IMG/VR virus record: IMGVR_UViG_3300009193_000003
Location: 1 to 40,812 of that record
Reading direction: 5' to 3' (one strand)
Length of the DNA stretch: 40,812 nucleotides
Origin: a virus
Lineage: Duplodnaviria; Caudoviricetes
Positions 397-40,776 of this stretch are shown piece by piece. Within the stretch, counting starts at the first letter, position 1. Each line of letters starts with the position of its first letter. The translations under genes were made by a program, and so were the position numbers. The notes below the pieces were generated by a model. That model saw nothing but the letters and a program-made list of their open reading frames with translations, ran no database searches and had not been told where the DNA came from.

Positions 397-648
397 ATGA
401 CAATCAACGATATGCACCCGACTGATTTAATCGAGCACAGACGCAAGCAAGCTATAGATAATCGAAATAAAATAATTAGTGATGCTAAAAATGATACTGA
501 TGAACTTACCTTTGCCGGTTCAATATCAGATAAAGCACAAGGCGAAGCTGCACAAAAAAGACGAGCGCGAATTAATGCTTTAGAAATGAAACGATTATTA
601 TCAGCTGATGATACTAGCGAGTTAAAAGAAATGATGAAGGATTTATGA
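397..648 (+). CDS. Hypothetical protein
   Basis: Likely start is ATG 397, after the AAGGGG SD; ORF track 358..648. Confidence 0.7.
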   Translation: MTINDMHPTDLIEHRRKQAIDNRNKIISDAKNDTDELTFAGSISDKAQGEAAQKRRARINALEMKRLLSADDTSELKEMMKDL

Positions 649-806
649 TGAATAACATACCACCAGGCGCAGAATACTATTATAAGCACACGTATTATAA
701 ATTTGGCGAGATGTATGCGTTATACTTCGCTAATGGCTCATGGAGACAATCAGCAAGTGTTACAAATGAAGAGTTAGCTTTAAGTGCAACTAAGATAAAT
801 AATTAA
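645..806 (+). CDS. Small hypothetical protein (53 aa, not in ORF track)
   Basis: MMNNIPPGAEYYYKHTYYKFGE...KINN*; AAGGA SD; ATGA overlap with the previous gene. Confidence 0.65.
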   Translation: MMNNIPPGAEYYYKHTYYKFGEMYALYFANGSWRQSASVTNEELALSATKINN

Positions 807-819
807 ACCACCACACAAT

Positions 820-881
820 AAAAAGCCCTAGCATTGACTAGGGCTTTTTCGTTCGGGAGATATAAAGAGAGAGGCTTTATT
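820..881 (-). ncRNA. Candidate anti-Shine-Dalgarno small RNA
   Basis: Extended -10 TGCTATGAT (rc of 887-895); CU-rich body CCUCUCUCUUUAUAUCUCCC; ends in the 821-849 terminator. Confidence 0.5.
821..849. terminator. Bidirectional intrinsic terminator
   Basis: AAAAGCCCTAG-cattga-CTAGGGCTTTTT between convergent genes. Confidence 0.85.
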
Positions 882-904
882 TGCTAATCATAGCACAAAC
901 CATT

Positions 905-1956: not shown

Positions 1957-1985
1957 GTTATATCTCTCTTTGTTTGTTGGCTGGT

Positions 1986-2441: not shown

Positions 2442-2496
2442 TATATAAACCCTCTCTTGTTGTTTGTTATTGACTTGCTTTATTTTAAATATATAA

Positions 2497-3217: not shown

Positions 3218-3624
3218 TACTTACTATCTCCTTGGTTAAGTGCCTCAACAAGCTCTTTAGCATCATTAAGCACATTGTAAGGTATTCTATCGAATGGGCT
3301 AGGATGATTGTCATAATCGTCATGTAGGTGCATATAATCAGAACCTAACACAAGAGTTTTGCGCGAATCTGATTTGTCGTATTTATTACCACCTGTAGCA
3401 CATACTGACTTTAATTTGTCATAAGTACACCCACCATGGAAAGGTAAGTTATTCATAGCACCTTCAGGGTTGTTAAATAAACCGTGAGATTCAAATATAT
3501 TAGCGTAAACATTCCAATTCCATTTACCATCAAACTGCCAAGCCTTTATTGTTACACTAAATGTTTTCTTTACTGCGACCTTAAATTCAACCACTGCTTT
3601 AAATTCTTCTAGTTGTTCGTTCAT
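3217..3624 (-). CDS. Conserved phage hypothetical protein
   Basis: WNVY...FHGGCTY...LGSDYMHLHD, a motif pattern typical of phage HGG-T-Y proteins. Confidence 0.75.
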   Translation of the reverse strand: MNEQLEEFKAVVEFKVAVKKTFSVTIKAWQFDGKWNWNVYANIFESHGLFNNPEGAMNNLPFHGGCTYDKLKSVCATGGNKYDKSDSRKTLVLGSDYMHLHDDYDNHPSPFDRIPYNVLNDAKELVEALNQGDSK

Positions 3625-3744
3625 TTTTCCATCTCTCTATTGGTTACTCGTTGTTGATGAAATTAATATTAACACAATATATTGACAATGCAACAGACTT
3701 CTATCAGAATAGATACACATTCAACACAGAGAGATGATAAGCGC

Positions 3745-4246: not shown

Positions 4247-4969
4247 ATGAAAGATTTATCAAACCTAGTTAATAACTACAAACCAATTGCCGAACATAAG
4301 CAATCACCAGTTATTGATGATTTCGCTAAAAGCATTATTGATCGAGTATTTGATAACCTAGCCATTATATTTCCTGCATGGAAGCACAATTGGAAAAGTG
4401 ACGATCCGAATCAGCCTGATAAAGTTTTAAAAATGGCTAAGCGCGAATGGACAAAAGCATTTGTTGAAAACGACATTTCTACGTTAGATCAAATTAGCTG
4501 CGGATTCGCTAAAGCTAGGCGCGCTGAAACAGATTTTTTACCTAGTTGCGGAAAGTTTATTTCTTGGTGTGCGCCCGATGCTGAAGATTTAGGATACCCA
4601 AGCGAGCAAAAAGCTATGCGTTCGTGTGTCGCTTATCGCGCCAATGTAAAACTAGGGTTACCAAGCACAGCAAGACCGTTAATAGTTGAGTTGTGCAAGC
4701 GTGTTGATTGGTGGATGATTAATGCTGTTAACTCACAAGCGACACAAGCAAAAGCAGATAAACACTTCAAAGAGGTTTATATTGCGCTGATAGCATCTGA
4801 TTACCGTGAGCCAGAAGAAACCACGCACGAGCGACTAGAGACTAGCGAAGTTACTAAGCAACGAATGAGTCCACAGCAAAAAGAAGATAGCGTACAGCGA
4901 GGATTAGACGCCATGAAAGCGGTTAGAGCTAAGTTAAAAGCTAGTAAGCTAGACAATAAACAACAATAG
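4247..4969 (+). CDS. Lambda P-like replication protein (helicase loader)
   Basis: F..L..IFPAW...AKREWTKAFVENDI..LDQI..G..KAR....FLPSCGKFISWC. Confidence 0.85.
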   Translation: MKDLSNLVNNYKPIAEHKQSPVIDDFAKSIIDRVFDNLAIIFPAWKHNWKSDDPNQPDKVLKMAKREWTKAFVENDISTLDQISCGFAKARRAETDFLPSCGKFISWCAPDAEDLGYPSEQKAMRSCVAYRANVKLGLPSTARPLIVELCKRVDWWMINAVNSQATQAKADKHFKEVYIALIASDYREPEETTHERLETSEVTKQRMSPQQKEDSVQRGLDAMKAVRAKLKASKLDNKQQ

Positions 4970-4985
4970 GAGATATAAGAATGAA
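4957..4985 (+). repeat. 29-bp direct repeat, copy 1 (RBS and start codon)
   Basis: TAAACAACAATAGGAGATATAAGAATGAA, identical at 5898-5926. Confidence 0.95.
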
Positions 4986-5148
4986 AGATTGGGAGCTAAA
5001 AATAATGAATGAAAAGCTAAAAAACAATAGCTATTTAGTTACTTCTGGTCGTGATCTATTTTTATGTAACAAAATAAATGGCGAGTACATTGTTAAAAAT
5101 AAAAATAAAGATGTAATAAAAAACCCTTTAAAGGCTATTAAATTATGA
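4981..5148 (+). CDS. Small hypothetical protein (55 aa, not in ORF track)
   Basis: AGGAG SD; MKDWELKIMNEK...AIKL*; ATGA overlap with the next gene. Confidence 0.65.
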   Translation: MKDWELKIMNEKLKNNSYLVTSGRDLFLCNKINGEYIVKNKNKDVIKNPLKAIKL

Positions 5149-5900
5149 AGCATTATCACGGTGGCCCAATTACGCCAGCATCTTGCGCTATGAAGACTTG
5201 GAAGAACGGTTTTGCTTTTGTTAGTTGGGCGCACACCAGTCAACTACATCTAGCCTTAGATATTAGCCAGGGTGTTGGTATTGATAACGGTGCGTTTACT
5301 TTCTGGAAGTGCAAGCAAGCAACCAATTGGGTTCCATACTATGACTTTGTTAGGGCATTAAAAAACCATCCTAGATTTGATTTTTGTATAATTCCCGATG
5401 TTATTGATGGCGGTGAGATTGAAAATGACAATCTTTTATCAGAATGGCCTGAAGATTTAAAAGGTTTTGGTGTTCCTGTTTGGCACATGAATGAGTCAGA
5501 CGAAAGATTCATAAGGCTATGCAATGACTATGACCGTGTTGCTATCGGATCTTGTGGCGAATATGACGTAACAAAATCTAGAGCTTGCGTATCAAAACTA
5601 AAAGATGTGATAAGGCATGTTGTTGATGAAAGCGGATATCCAATAACTAAGTTGCACATGCTACGGGGTTTAAATAAAAACATATTTAAACACTTGCCTT
5701 TTGCATCAGCTGACAGCACAAACATAGCTAGAAATATTGGTATTGATAAAAATTGGGAAAATGGAAATTACCAACCGAAATCAAAAGAGGTCAGAGCATA
5801 CGTTATGAAAAACAACATTGAATCGGTAAACTCTGCTAGCTCATTAATTTATAATGAATCGACAGATAAAGTAAGTATACAAATGGCTTTTGAAATTTAA
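5145..5900 (+). CDS. Conserved phage protein, possibly a TGT/DpdA-like base-exchange enzyme
   Basis: HYHGGPITP, DNGAF, IPDVI, PVWH, HMLRG and SADSTN motifs; function inferred. Confidence 0.5.
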   Translation: MKHYHGGPITPASCAMKTWKNGFAFVSWAHTSQLHLALDISQGVGIDNGAFTFWKCKQATNWVPYYDFVRALKNHPRFDFCIIPDVIDGGEIENDNLLSEWPEDLKGFGVPVWHMNESDERFIRLCNDYDRVAIGSCGEYDVTKSRACVSKLKDVIRHVVDESGYPITKLHMLRGLNKNIFKHLPFASADSTNIARNIGIDKNWENGNYQPKSKEVRAYVMKNNIESVNSASSLIYNESTDKVSIQMAFEI

Positions 5901-5926
5901 ACAACAATAGGAGATATAAGAATGAA
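5898..5926 (+). repeat. 29-bp direct repeat, copy 2
   Basis: Identical to 4957-4985. Confidence 0.95.
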
Positions 5927-6068
5927 CAGCAAAGAGAGGTACAACAAACGGATAGATGACTACATATTAAAACTTCACGACTGCGGCTGCACAGTTGAGC
6001 AGATACACAAAGAAACGCGCAAAAGTTTTTTACACATAAATAAAATGATAGAGAGATATAGAAAATGA
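5922..6068 (+). CDS. Small HTH-like protein (48 aa, not in ORF track)
   Basis: ILKLHDCGCTVEQIHKETRKSFLHINKMIERY; AGGAG SD. Confidence 0.6.
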   Translation: MNSKERYNKRIDDYILKLHDCGCTVEQIHKETRKSFLHINKMIERYRK

Positions 6069-6409: not shown

Positions 6410-7549
6410 ATGCCTAAGTTTATTCAGGAAAAACAAGAGCCATTTAAAAAGATAAAGGTAACGTTTATTGATGGTAGTTATATATTTGTCAGATTTAATT
6501 GCAAGGATGATTATGATCGGTATTCTTTCAGGTGTTTTAAGTTTAATTTTTGCAGTGTAACAGCACAGCGCGGTTTATTTTCAAACGTTACAGAGCAAAA
6601 GATAACAGATAAAACTAAGTCAATATGGTATCCATTTAAGTCACACTGGGGCCTAGCAAAAAACAGATGGCGCACAGATGAAAAAGTAAACCCTAAGTAC
6701 CCTGTTTACATTGTATCAAAAGGCAGGTCTGACAATGGATTGACAACTAAATCACTCGATAAAATGGGCGTGAATCACTATATTGTCGTTGAAGCACATG
6801 AGGCGGCAGAATATAAAGAAAAAACAAATGCAGAAATACTTGTACTCCCATCTAGATATTTAAATGATTACGATACGTGCGATGAATTAGGAAACACAAG
6901 AAGCAAAGGCCCAGGGGCTGCTCGTAATTTCTGCCTAGACCATTCCAAAAATAACGGATTTAATCGCCATTGGGTGATGGATGATAACTTAGATGCTTTT
7001 CATAGGCTGAATGATAATGAGAAATACGAGGTTGAAACAGGAGCGACATTAAGGGCAAGTGAGGATTTTGTTGATCGATACAGTAACGTACCAGTAGCAG
7101 GGCTTAACTATTACTCGTTTTGTAAAAAAACAGACAAAGTGCCACCATTTATAAAAAATACTAGAATTTATTCATGTCTGCTAATTGATAATAATGCAGG
7201 CTATAGGTGGAGAGGAAGATACAACGAAGATACTGACCTTTCATTGCGAGTTTTAAAGGATGGCTTATGCACAATTCAATTCAACGCTTTTCTTTGCGGA
7301 AAGGTTACAACCCAAAGAATGAAAGGCGGAAACACAAAGGAATTTTATGCAGAAGAGGGGACTTTGCCAAAATCACAAATGCTTGCAGATCTTCATCCAG
7401 ATGTTGCAAAAGTTAAATGGATGTTTAATAGATGGCATCACAAGGTTGATTATTCTGAATACAAAAAGAATAAACTTAAATTAATCTCACCGCAAAATGA
7501 TAGTGGCCCAAATAATTACGGCATGAAATTGATAAAGGAACGCGGCTAG
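6410..7549 (+). CDS. TAGT/GREB1-like GT-A DNA glycosyltransferase with an N-terminal accessory domain
   Basis: YPVYIVSKGR, GPGAARNF, HWVMDDN, NTRIYSCLLI, RWRGRYNEDTDLSL, MKGGNT, RWHHKVDY. Confidence 0.75.
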   Translation: MPKFIQEKQEPFKKIKVTFIDGSYIFVRFNCKDDYDRYSFRCFKFNFCSVTAQRGLFSNVTEQKITDKTKSIWYPFKSHWGLAKNRWRTDEKVNPKYPVYIVSKGRSDNGLTTKSLDKMGVNHYIVVEAHEAAEYKEKTNAEILVLPSRYLNDYDTCDELGNTRSKGPGAARNFCLDHSKNNGFNRHWVMDDNLDAFHRLNDNEKYEVETGATLRASEDFVDRYSNVPVAGLNYYSFCKKTDKVPPFIKNTRIYSCLLIDNNAGYRWRGRYNEDTDLSLRVLKDGLCTIQFNAFLCGKVTTQRMKGGNTKEFYAEEGTLPKSQMLADLHPDVAKVKWMFNRWHHKVDYSEYKKNKLKLISPQNDSGPNNYGMKLIKERG

Positions 7550-22693: not shown

Positions 22694-23060
22694 GGTCATT
22701 AGAGGCGTTAGTCATGGATGGTAGACTAAGCCAGCTTGTAGATTAAACAATATATATCAGTATCAACTATCAATTCACAATCCCTGTTGGCTGACCAAAC
22801 CATATAACCATGACAAAACGTTGTTTATCCGCGCCTCTAAACGTCGATATATATTGAGTTATTACATATTTGCTACTTTAAAAACTTAGCTAGTTATGCG
22901 GATTTGTTACGAAAGTCCGAATTAAATCGGTTGAATAGATGGGAATGCTGGCAATAAAAAAGGCTTAGAGCGCGAATCTGGTCGAGTAGGCTAAATAAAT
23001 AACCTCAGAAACGCTTTCTAAACCTTCTTTGTTACGTGGACTCGACTCCAAACAACGAGG
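22694..23060 (-). ncRNA. Large structured non-coding RNA element, copy B
   Basis: Homologue of 2497-2899 with a 30-nt identical core; extended -10 TGATAAAAT at 23063-23071. Confidence 0.75.
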
Positions 23061-23163: not shown

Positions 23164-23202
23164 AGAGTTACGAAACAACCAATCAAAACAAGAGAGAATA
23201 TT

Positions 23203-23403
23203 ATGACTACATTAACAGATACTCAAGAAAGCAAAATATACACAATTAACCAAGAAATTATTGATATCGTAGGTGGTAGCGATAAAGAAGCTTTTAATGA
23301 GTTGATGGCATCAAGAAACCCGTTGAGCGCGATAAAACACGCATACAAAATGACATGTAAAATTCGCAATGTAAAAATCAACAATTACTTTCTGGATCTA
23401 TAA
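23203..23403 (+). CDS. Hypothetical protein (moron island 1)
   Basis: AGAGAG SD; 66 aa. Confidence 0.7.
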   Translation: MTTLTDTQESKIYTINQEIIDIVGGSDKEAFNELMASRNPLSAIKHAYKMTCKIRNVKINNYFLDL

Positions 23404-23591
23404 TGACAGCAAGCAAGCAAGCTAAAGAGTTAGGCTTAAAATCCCTGACTCAAGTTAGTGAGCTAACAGGGCAGAGCTTACAGACTTTAACTAATTGGTA
23501 TAACGATAAGTCAGAGCTATTCGAAGTGGTTTTGTTAGGCTGTGTGGTTAAGCATGATTCAATGGAAAAGCAGATTAAGGAGAGTAAGTGA
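23403..23591 (+). CDS. Small HTH regulator
   Basis: GLKSLTQVSELTGQSLQTLTNWY. Confidence 0.75.
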   Translation: MTASKQAKELGLKSLTQVSELTGQSLQTLTNWYNDKSELFEVVLLGCVVKHDSMEKQIKESK

Positions 23592-36537: not shown

Positions 36538-36747
36538 TTATATCTCCGCAAGTTTCGCTATTAACCTTTTGCTTGATTTCTCATTCTCTTTTCTTTTATA
36601 TCTGCTTATCTGGGCACTTAAGCTGTCAATTGTTTTCTTTCGATCCTCTGCTAGTTGCTCTATAGCCTCCAGCTTTAGTGTCATCACGGTAAACTCATTG
36701 TTAAGTTTGTCGTATTTAGCTTTTTCTATATCTAACTCATATCTCAT
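36538..36747 (-). CDS. Coiled-coil hypothetical protein
   Basis: GGAGATATAAC-ATG at 36747; flanked by 16-bp direct repeats. Confidence 0.7.
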   Translation of the reverse strand: MRYELDIEKAKYDKLNNEFTVMTLKLEAIEQLAEDRKKTIDSLSAQISRYKRKENEKSSKRLIAKLAEI

Positions 36748-36765
36748 GTTATATCTCCGTTGGTC

Positions 36766-37027: not shown

Positions 37028-37115
37028 GCCTAACAAGGCATTGAATATGACTAACTACAGCAAGCCACTTCGTTCCTCAATACCTTAGATTTAGCCGCGT
37101 TTTGTAAGTTTAGGC
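37028..37115 (+). mobile_element. attC-like site B (degenerate right arm)
   Basis: GCCTAAC AAGGCATTGAATATGAC...GTTTAGGC. Confidence 0.5.
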
Positions 37116-37844
37116 GGCTTTTCTAATTTCTACCAATACAGTGGCTATATTAGTTCCGCTTTCTTTAAACTCACCTGCTTTTATGTCAGTTACTATTGCG
37201 CCAACAGAATCTAACCATTCTCTAAATGCTACTTGCTTTTTCTGTGATCCACTAACCCAGCTTTTACCCATGACAGAAACTAGTAAACCTTCACTACCTA
37301 AAAATTCATACATGTGCAATACATGATCAATATCTTGGTTTTTCGTAAATGGTGGGTTTGCAACTATCCTCTCATACTTTATATGATCACTTGGATTAAC
37401 TGATAAAAAATCAGTAGGAGTTAAATTTATGTCGTATTTTCTATTTAACACTTTTATGTTTTCAGGCATTAATTCAATCATACTAGGGTGAGCACCTATC
37501 TCAATTATTGCATCTACAATAGCGCCTTGCCCTGCGCTCGGCTCCAAAACAGCCATATCACAAGTAATGACCGCCCTTTTAATCATTAAATCAACAACCG
37601 CTTTAGGCGTAGGAAAAAATTGAAACTTTTTCTTGTCGTTTATAGCTTCACCTCCAACCAATCTATCCTTAACAACCTGCGCATCATCAGTAAATAAAAA
37701 GCCACATTTTTTATATTTACCCCCTGCTAATGTTAGCGCCTTTTTTACTGATGGGTAATTGGTAAATTGTTCATCCGTTGGCAGCTCTAATCTATTGCCG
37801 TTTACTATCATTTTATTTATAGAGTTAATTAATTCTGTAGTCAT
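37110..37844 (-). CDS. N6-adenine-type DNA methyltransferase
   Basis: QFFPTP, motif I VLEPSAGQG, motif IV ANPPF. Confidence 0.88.
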   Translation of the reverse strand: MTTELINSINKMIVNGNRLELPTDEQFTNYPSVKKALTLAGGKYKKCGFLFTDDAQVVKDRLVGGEAINDKKKFQFFPTPKAVVDLMIKRAVITCDMAVLEPSAGQGAIVDAIIEIGAHPSMIELMPENIKVLNRKYDINLTPTDFLSVNPSDHIKYERIVANPPFTKNQDIDHVLHMYEFLGSEGLLVSVMGKSWVSGSQKKQVAFREWLDSVGAIVTDIKAGEFKESGTNIATVLVEIRKAA

Positions 37845-37879
37845 CTTATTTTTTCTCTCTCAGTAAGTGTCAAGCAGCC

Positions 37880-40234: not shown

Positions 40235-40259
40235 TTTAGTTCTCCCAAACTATTAATTA

Positions 40260-40551: not shown

Positions 40552-40776
40552 TAGTCTGTATAGTGAAATGAGCTATTAATGGCTGTTTGCGCTTAGGGCT
40601 GTTGATTCAGCCTACCTTTACAACTGGCTTCTTCATTTTGCCAGTAACCAAGATTCGAAAACTAACTCACTTCACTTATACAGACTATAAAATTAAACAC
40701 TGGTTTCCTTAGTCATTTTTTTCTGAGTCGGTTGATGGGGATACCAGTAAACGCTTAACCTCTCGACTTGGGTTTA
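40552..40776 (-). ncRNA. Structured leader of the recombination operon (multibranch fold plus hairpin leader)
   Basis: TAGTCTGTATA-GTGAA / TTCAC-T-TATACAGACTA closing stem encloses three hairpins. Confidence 0.5.

Follow-up and report, generated by a model that had tools for sequence, protein, structure and literature searches.

The phage genome and the block at 804-897

The window analysed here, that is, the whole stretch of 40,812 nucleotides, represents a complete virus record (40.8 kb) bounded by direct terminal repeats, and its genes are those expected of a siphovirus-like phage. On the minus strand, from 35205 to 10305, lie the genes for terminase, portal, capsid and tail, while other genes encode O/P-like replication proteins, Sak, an exonuclease, SSB, RusA and many small cassette products. 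HTH proteins are encoded at 195-395 and 23403-23591. Since no integrase family turned up among the 43 + 27 ORFs scanned against PHROGs, a lytic life style is likely; no antirepressor family was seen among the ORFs scanned either. A search for a close cultured relative found none, and comparison with the GTDB genomes gave no match. Related DNA comes mostly from marine samples; among 24 runs, no RNA run was listed as carrying it, which has no bearing on expression. The nearest SSB and capsid matches suggest that the host is a marine gammaproteobacterium.

Two convergent ORFs flank the locus of interest. The rightward one (648-806, plus strand) encodes 52 residues of no known family and is the last gene of a Cro/CI-type HTH operon in the window; the leftward one (1255-905, minus strand) encodes a 116-aa protein of PHROG 17560 and is an exchangeable cassette. 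The block 804-897 consists of a bidirectional intrinsic terminator (820-849), a pyrimidine-rich core (850-886) and an extended -10 element (895-887). A preliminary description of this DNA had pointed out the -10 and the terminator, and both can be read directly. The -10, TG-C-TATGAT, is the reverse complement of 887-895 and constitutes a predicted minus-strand promoter of the TG-n-TATGAT type, with no usable -35 (3/6 match). The terminator is a 12-bp hairpin with A5/T5 tails whose minus-strand fold has a z of -4.9; lying between the two ORFs, it can terminate both ways and is common to the rightward 195-806 operon and to the predicted small RNA or leftward operon.

On the plus strand the core carries GGAGATATAA at 856-865 (hereafter the 10-mer) and AAAGAGAGAG at 864-873. 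The preliminary description saw no convincing ORF behind these motifs, and indeed the only plus-strand start is a TTG located 6 nt past GAGAGG; the micro-ORF that it opens was rejected, being 5 to 41 codons long across nine sequences and not conserved. In the window, 850-904 is also the 3' UTR of ORF 1255-905, whose stop codon precedes the -10 by about 10 nt and which lacks a separate terminator there. The element does not belong to this ORF, however, since an sRNA-like tail is absent from 14 distant homologues of it.

Promoter and terminator together predict a small RNA of about 65 nt (816-881, minus strand), which would start some 6-7 nt past the -10, at about 881, and end within the U-run. 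In its predicted fold, a weak 6-bp A-U stem (880-875 with 867-862) closes a CCUCUCU loop (874-868), and AUCUCCCGAACG (861-850) forms a single-stranded tail between this stem-loop and the terminator. Loop and tail are predicted to be mostly unpaired at 15 as well as at 37 C. Both lie in the putative pairing region, 850-881 on the minus strand, which is invariant in all sequences compared; as the 5' stem never varies, covariation lends it no support.

Conservation of the block in related phages

Relatives were collected with a profile of the 52-aa ORF, which gave 14 metagenome loci. Three were set aside: L025, which is the window itself, L036, which is the same DNA as L018, and L038, a spurious match over 16 residues. 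L030 and L032 stop before the junction, and L017/L019 stops before the terminator of its operon. Eight close relatives reach the junction, with a 52-aa protein 81-88% identical to that of the window, and all eight keep the block 804-897 with the genes on both sides swapped. Seven different minus-strand neighbours occur among the nine sequences, just one of the eight relatives sharing ORF 905-1255, and in four of the eight carriers other genes are inserted after the 648-806 ORF. Upstream of the -10, similarity to most relatives stops within a few bases.

The stretch 850-888 is invariant. None of the 37 sites in 850-886 varies, in contrast to 54 of 150 in the shared neighbouring gene (nine sequences, Fisher p = 9e-7), and variation falls in the terminator loop and stem and in the 804-818 spacer. 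The 12 terminator pairs are nonetheless all kept in 9/9 sequences, one G-C having become U-A by a double change in L029 and L034; the corresponding covariation score, reached by 20 of 500 shuffles, is weak on its own. In L033 (405-434) the terminator loop has the reverse-complement sequence of its usual form, which looks like an in-place inversion of the hairpin. Within the -10, the only letters that vary are n (C/T/A), the fourth of the hexamer (G/T) and, in a single sequence, L027, the first T, and variation at these positions is tolerated by sigma-70.

Three relatives (L028, L031 and L033) possess a separate minus-strand hairpin followed by a U-run just upstream of the -10 (z from -2.3 to -3.1), and two alleles from run X6 have a similar hairpin in place of ORF 905-1255. 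Since these hairpins would end the leftward operon before the -10, the core can there be transcribed only from its own promoter or by leak, and the block is therefore not merely a 3' UTR. Contigs from runs X2, X3, X4, X6, X11 and X13 contain the block with few differences between diverged or replaced flanks; two further contigs from run X4 match the terminator only and are then unlike the window. A plus-strand ORF right after 856-875 in relatives, which according to the preliminary description would make the motif the remnant RBS of a deleted gene, was found in none of the eight. The same text looked to relatives for a syntenic sRNA whose seed covaries with the RBS motif; the syntenic block is there in 8/8 carriers, but its seed is invariant in 9/9 sequences.

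The eight carriers are one close clade and not independent origins. They are mosaic phages that share other exact runs of 81-239 nt as well as many conserved joints of 28-60 nt, so that recent recombination explains part of the identity; in each of the eight, the block ranks within the top six exact runs by length. In the more distant L018/G002 (complete) and L037, the junction holds nothing but a terminator. Pattern, DNA and covariance-model searches found no diverged homologue of the core. The exact terminator-plus-motif pattern had 0 matches in IMG/VR, and a relaxed pattern matched 112 loci, four of them with a closing terminator stem; the three of these four that were inspected were rejected as ordinary terminator-RBS-start arrangements on the other strand, and no tblastx link to the window appeared among the matches listed. 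The one match of an exact 20-mer in GTDB genomes, in a Rhodanobacter genome, was discarded as well, there being no terminator in its flanks. Blastn against cultured phages gave terminator-level matches only, a search of 20 virus records at the DNA level gave a single such match, and a covariance model run over 41 sources scored only its nine training sequences above 33 bits. That the block is an independent minus-strand unit made of promoter, core and terminator is supported by its conservation amid changing neighbours, and it is probably an RNA gene.

A row of hairpin, CCUCUCUC stretch and terminator was also observed on the minus strand of L022 at 4565-4660 (record G004; also in L021), where it separates a short upstream gene from the start of a terminase-small-subunit-like gene. 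It complements four RBS zones of G004, which places it in the top 2% only, has no clear promoter and was given no score by the covariance model; it is possibly an analogous 3'-tail RNA.

Complementarity of the core to ribosome-binding sites

The recurrence of the 10-mer, on which the preliminary description was built, is far beyond chance: the window contains five copies of GGAGATATAA for 0.10 expected, and 0/100 shuffles reach five. The four copies outside the block had been taken for RBSs, and they do precede ORFs 4981 and 5922 (4969-4978 and 5910-5919, plus strand) and ORFs 36536 and 36747 (36538-36547 and 36749-36758, minus strand). They amount to three independent copies, since those at 4969 and 5910 lie within one exact 29-nt repeat (4957-4985 and 5898-5926). 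This repeat, which includes RBS and start codon, brackets ORFs 4981-5148 and 5145-5900, the latter belonging to PHROG 887, labelled queuine tRNA-ribosyltransferase, and recombination at an RBS joint seems to have brought in the pair as a cassette. Behind this RBS block relatives carry other genes, as seen in L027, L028 and L034. More generally, the same RBS blocks stand ahead of different genes in different relatives and also serve as cassette joints.

Sites predicted to be targets extend beyond the 10-mer. The core would form an 11-bp helix at ORF 4981, the repeat copy at ORF 5922 being a predicted target as well, and 10-bp helices at ORF 36536, ORF 36747 and ORF 6065 (6053-6062, plus strand). 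Variants of the motif precede, as had been claimed, 1956, 2201, 3624, 6065, 23203 and 37844. Among the corresponding predicted sites, that of the short, 19-codon ORF 1956 (1963-1971, minus strand; 9 bp) heads a 311-aa gene in L034, that of ORF 3624 (3632-3640, minus strand; 9 bp) belongs to the first gene of the leftward accessory operon, and those of ORF 23203 (23190-23197, plus strand) and of the methyltransferase-like ORF 37844 (37854-37861, minus strand) are weaker, with 8 bp each. A predicted site at ORF 3217 (3220-3231, minus strand) scores -11.9 kcal/mol with opening costs. Two further predicted targets, absent from the preliminary description, are kept in L027, L028, L029 and L034 and use opposite ends of the core. 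One precedes ORF 40234, the second gene of the leftward recombination operon (40241-40250, minus strand), and would form a 10-bp helix with the core 3' tail, outside the SD core; the other precedes ORF 2441 (2445-2457, minus strand) and would form a 12-bp interrupted duplex with the 5' stem-loop part. All genes matched by core 7-mers or 8-mers are non-structural, in agreement with what had been said of the motif-bearing genes.

To rate this complementarity, 70 curated starts were used, 48 non-structural and 22 of morphogenesis or lysis genes; ORF 6288 (14 codons) was left out of the gene list, and ORF 5922 was left out, as a duplicate, of the counts given per 47 genes. Among 77,108 windows of 31 nt taken from both strands, the core ranks first for complementarity to the phage's own RBS zones. 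Its lead is narrow: exact 7-mers match 12 genes (next best window, 11) and 8-mers match 7 (next best, 6). In four relatives the core is likewise at the top or within the top 0.7%. Exact matches of at least 8 nt, an asymmetric motif before starts, occur at 7/48 non-structural and 0/22 morphogenesis/lysis starts, shuffled seeds giving 1.5 (p = 0.004). With opening costs at 20 C, 16/48 non-structural starts reach -8 kcal/mol or lower against 0/22 (p = 0.0015); the difference fades as the threshold is made stricter, from 9/48 against 0/22 at -10 (p = 0.049) to 5/48 against 0/22 at -12 (p = 0.17). Helices of at least 9 bp with the core are found at 13/47 non-structural and 0/22 morphogenesis/lysis starts. 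Shuffles that keep both anti-SD cores give 2.7 +/- 1.9 such helices with a maximum of 11 (300 shuffles), and 2 of 168 orders of the 8-nt linker reach 13; for helices of at least 10 bp, 20 of the 168 linker orders equal the core. Coding windows have a helix of at least 9 bp in 11/610 cases, or 7/89 among those with an SD core, to be compared with 11/27 for non-structural starts that have an SD core.

Other tests are less favourable. Energy-based nulls in which the core is held fixed are not significant (p = 0.12 and 0.21), and the early/late gap in plain duplex energy does not exceed that of shuffled seeds (p = 0.108). Moreover, a generic anti-SD 8-mer splits the gene classes equally well (p = 0.003), late genes simply having weaker SDs. 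Counted by gene class, GGAGA, GAGAG or GAGAT occurs at 2/22 morphogenesis against 17/48 non-structural starts (p = 0.023). Morphogenesis starts (10305-35205, minus strand) have AAGG/AAAGG-type RBSs in 9/22 cases, versus 9/48 for the others. The assignment of non-structural genes as the target class is thus supported by several tests, not by all.

Core-matching starts are not confined to this phage family. Two unrelated annotated marine phages have 5/51 and 6/69 (about 10%), and a Vibrio megaplasmid segment has 1/47. When one automatic pipeline was applied throughout, carriers gave 13-21% and other records 2-13%, some MCP-related ones standing at 10-12%; the complete relative G002, which is without the RNA, gave 0/47. 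The RBS address is thus enriched roughly twofold, and since unrelated marine phages and MCP-related records match at about 10%, it is only partly private. By the same token, 0/22 for the morphogenesis/lysis class is not far from a 10% baseline.

A proposed trans-acting RNA and its alternatives

The reading that I favour, with a probability of roughly 0.55, is that the block encodes a trans-acting sRNA of about 65 nt that prevents ribosomes from binding a class of non-structural mRNAs. Transcribed from its own predicted extended -10 within 816-895, with a start at about 881, this RNA would pair in trans with the G/A-rich RBSs of about a dozen non-structural genes of the phage. Pairing would begin at the exposed CCUCUCU loop for AGAGAG-type sites and at the single-stranded AUCUCCC tail for GGAGAUAU-type sites; the ribosome would be kept off the paired RBS, perhaps with the help of Hfq bound to the U-tail, and translation would be blocked. 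Virion genes would be spared, morphogenesis genes having mostly AAAGG-type sites that pair poorly, and a new cassette gene arriving downstream of a conserved RBS block would immediately be subject to this control. The anti-SD RNA of the preliminary description thus gains an independent, conserved unit whose core is the best complement to the non-structural RBSs, but not the covariation between seed and targets. Its further proposal, that the RNA explains why these RBSs are so stereotyped, is weakened, since L037, with no sRNA block within 20 kb of sequence, has two RBSs that match the core over 10-11 nt, and since the RBS blocks double as cassette joints.

The purpose of such an RNA can be proposed only tentatively. 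Damping accessory and early genes as infection proceeds seems the most likely one, and steady dosage control is a possible alternative. The promoter bears on the matter. Extended -10 sites are found within 150 nt upstream of 6/22 morphogenesis/lysis starts versus 2/48 others, and one of these six has a good -35. Minus-strand sites of this kind, mostly without -35, were noted upstream of 34736, 34272, 30106, 26070, 22622, 12518 and 8125; they precede morphogenesis and lysis units, relatives retain several of them, and they are candidates for a late promoter class with no known activator. That the RNA has a promoter of the same type suggests late expression. This timing is weakly supported, since promoters of this type stand before non-structural operons too, in L027, L028 and L037, and, an extended -10 being independent of activators, the RNA could just as well be expressed from early on. 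Going by promoter type alone, the early-to-late switch suggested in the preliminary description is plausible. In its fullest form, which I consider speculative, a single sRNA of about 65 nt with a late-type promoter would run the gene-class switch of a lytic phage, silencing exchangeable early and accessory genes along with part of the host's G/A-rich messages, so that ribosomes go to virion genes with a non-matching RBS type.

Four other explanations have to be set against the trans-acting sRNA. In one, which is unlikely although it is compatible with a phage-directed RNA, in that both can hold, the RNA is made and is mainly a broad anti-Shine-Dalgarno brake on the mRNAs of the host and of rival phages, in the manner of the Burkholderia 'toxic' double-hairpin sRNAs; virion genes would escape through their AAAGG-type sites and the effect on early genes would be incidental. 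In its favour, the two exposed stretches are nothing more than anti-SD words, some 10% of starts in unrelated marine phages pair with the core over 9 bp, the canonical SDs of late genes are weaker overall, and the architecture is like that of the RF02278 sRNAs, described as growth-slowing when overexpressed (PMC5688073). However, the core flanks suit the RBS contexts of the phage itself better than permuted flanks do, and the sole cellular-type baseline, the Vibrio megaplasmid segment, stands at 1/47. The possibility of action in cis, in which the core would form the 3' end of the leftward operon mRNA and fold onto RBSs of that same message (3624, 3217, 2441, 2201 and 1956), takes strength from the five predicted targets within that operon and from the lack of a terminator between operon and core in the window and in L026. 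It is very improbable, given that the operon stops before an unchanged core in L028, L031 and L033 and that the strongest predicted targets (4981, 5922, 36747 and 40234) are on other transcripts.

Two explanations remain. According to one, there is no regulatory RNA, and the block combines a terminator with a joint for recombination where the leftward cassette array ends, holding the leftover RBS of a lost plus-strand gene and kept uniform by frequent exchange. The wealth of 28-60-nt conserved joints and long exact runs in this family is in keeping with this, the motif resembles the family RBS up to the missing ATG (L037 RBSs match over 10-11 nt), and the relaxed IMG/VR pattern, with 4/112 loci having a closing stem, led to terminator-RBS-start arrangements in the three inspected. 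Against it, a plus-strand ORF is absent in 8/8 carriers, variation affects the terminator loop and stem and the 804-818 spacer but not the core, the block is bounded by a -10 that faces the opposite way, it persists past a second terminator in three relatives, and its rank among the six longest exact runs holds in all eight carriers; I judge this explanation to be distinctly unlikely. The other, which is very improbable, is a protein site, whether an operator in the DNA that recurs where genes start or a site in RNA bound by a factor of RegA/RegB type, of which the present copy would be a decoy on plus-strand read-through RNA or a control of the adjacent promoter. The phage does encode the two HTH proteins mentioned above, T4 RegB is reported to cut GGAG in early RBSs and to spare late mRNAs (PMC3014915), and for the start-associated sequences (SAS) of cluster K mycobacteriophages the account of PMC3203893 left RNA and protein partners open. 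Yet the motif lies behind a terminator on the plus strand and is not palindromic, and no RegA/RegB-like family was found among the 70 ORFs scanned against PHROGs. The targets, moreover, match different portions of the core, some of which do not overlap, and include G-U pairs; base pairing accounts for this better than one protein site would.

In design, the proposed trans-acting sRNA is closest to RF02278 and to Neisseria NmsR as described in PMC5688073: these are about 60-70 nt long, with a small 5' hairpin and a terminator hairpin, and have two unpaired CU-rich stretches complementary to RBSs and many predicted targets in start regions. They are chromosomal and act on host metabolism genes (PMC5688073), unlike the putative RNA of the window, which would be encoded by a phage and suits the non-structural RBSs of that phage. 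The likeness is one of design and not of kinship, since the RF02278 covariance model gives the window element 19.3 bits, below the gathering score of 50, and these rest on UCUCC and the terminator. An Rfam scan of the window gave no family at gathering score, SorY, AgrB and RF02278 being far below, and the c4 model is absent from the E-value lists for 700-1000 and 805-900.

As in the c4 (P1/P7) and sar (P22) systems, a phage RNA would pair around the RBS of phage mRNA, c4 doing so through loop-exposed sequences; according to the same source, c4 and sar each act on one antirepressor message in immunity or lysogeny, unlike the roughly 13 genes on several transcripts predicted here (PMC12197685). 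No c4-type operon with an antirepressor target is seen either: the neighbours of the block are ORFs without assigned function, and the targets are scattered. VpdS of VP882 and PreS of lambda resemble the proposed RNA in being phage-encoded, trans-acting sRNAs that favour lytic growth; unlike it, they belong to temperate phages and are described as host-directed, with no shared phage RBS motif given in those accounts, and VpdS is reported to act on both host and phage mRNAs (PMC12197685; bioRxiv 10.1101/2024.10.31.621285). The phage antisense RNAs treated in the review each act on one phage message or on the host, and none of c4, sar, OOP, aQ, 24B_1, VpdS and PreS is described in its sections on them as addressing many phage genes through one RBS motif (PMC12197685). 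In the literature searched, which covered few subscription journals, no phage sRNA was found that acts on a whole class of the phage's genes through a common RBS motif.

T4 RegB, as presented in PMC3014915, offers a parallel in which an SD-embedded motif serves as the address by which many early mRNAs are inactivated while late ones escape. It is an S1-activated protein nuclease, unlike the RNA pairing proposed here, and the consensus of the window motif differs from the RegB site quoted there (PMC3014915); if the sRNA switch is real, it would be an RNA counterpart of RegB. The cluster K SAS resembles the window motif in being asymmetric, overlapping the RBS and restricted to non-structural genes (PMC3203893), and the restriction to non-structural starts recurs here (7/48 against 0/22, above). 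Three cluster K genomes have a lone reverse copy of the SAS, whose RNA or protein partner was left open in 2011 (PMC3203893). Differences are that the SAS consists of a 13-mer with 17-bp inverted repeats in phages of an actinobacterial host, the window motif being looser and of different sequence by inspection, and that the reverse copy comes without a described RNA in that account (PMC3203893), in contrast to the odd copy of the window, which stands between a promoter-like site and a terminator. Should the proposal be correct, it would answer, in favour of an RNA reader, the question that the SAS has posed since 2011 (PMC3203893), and would offer a general answer as to the purpose of phage start-associated sequences and of their lone reverse copies. 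It would also mean that a mosaic phage controls newly acquired cassette genes through an inherited RBS block, with no need for new regulators. The predicted unit is smaller than 100 bp, and ordinary reporters would suffice to test it, without phage culture.

Some features elsewhere in the window were noted in passing. Queuine-tRNA-ribosyltransferase-like (5145-5900), glucosyltransferase-like (6410-7549) and methyltransferase-like (37110-37844) genes suggest DNA modification cassettes. An imperfect direct repeat of about 150 nt, with an exact core of about 30 nt, occupies two intergenic regions (2555-2706 and 22743-22893); its fold is weak, only its last 38 nt are seen in one relative, L034, and it is possibly a small mobile or regulatory module. 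Lastly, the divergent promoter region before the HTH gene (40662-40770 and 1-170) is identical over 81-109 nt in L027 and L028, and the HTH gene behind it is itself exchanged.
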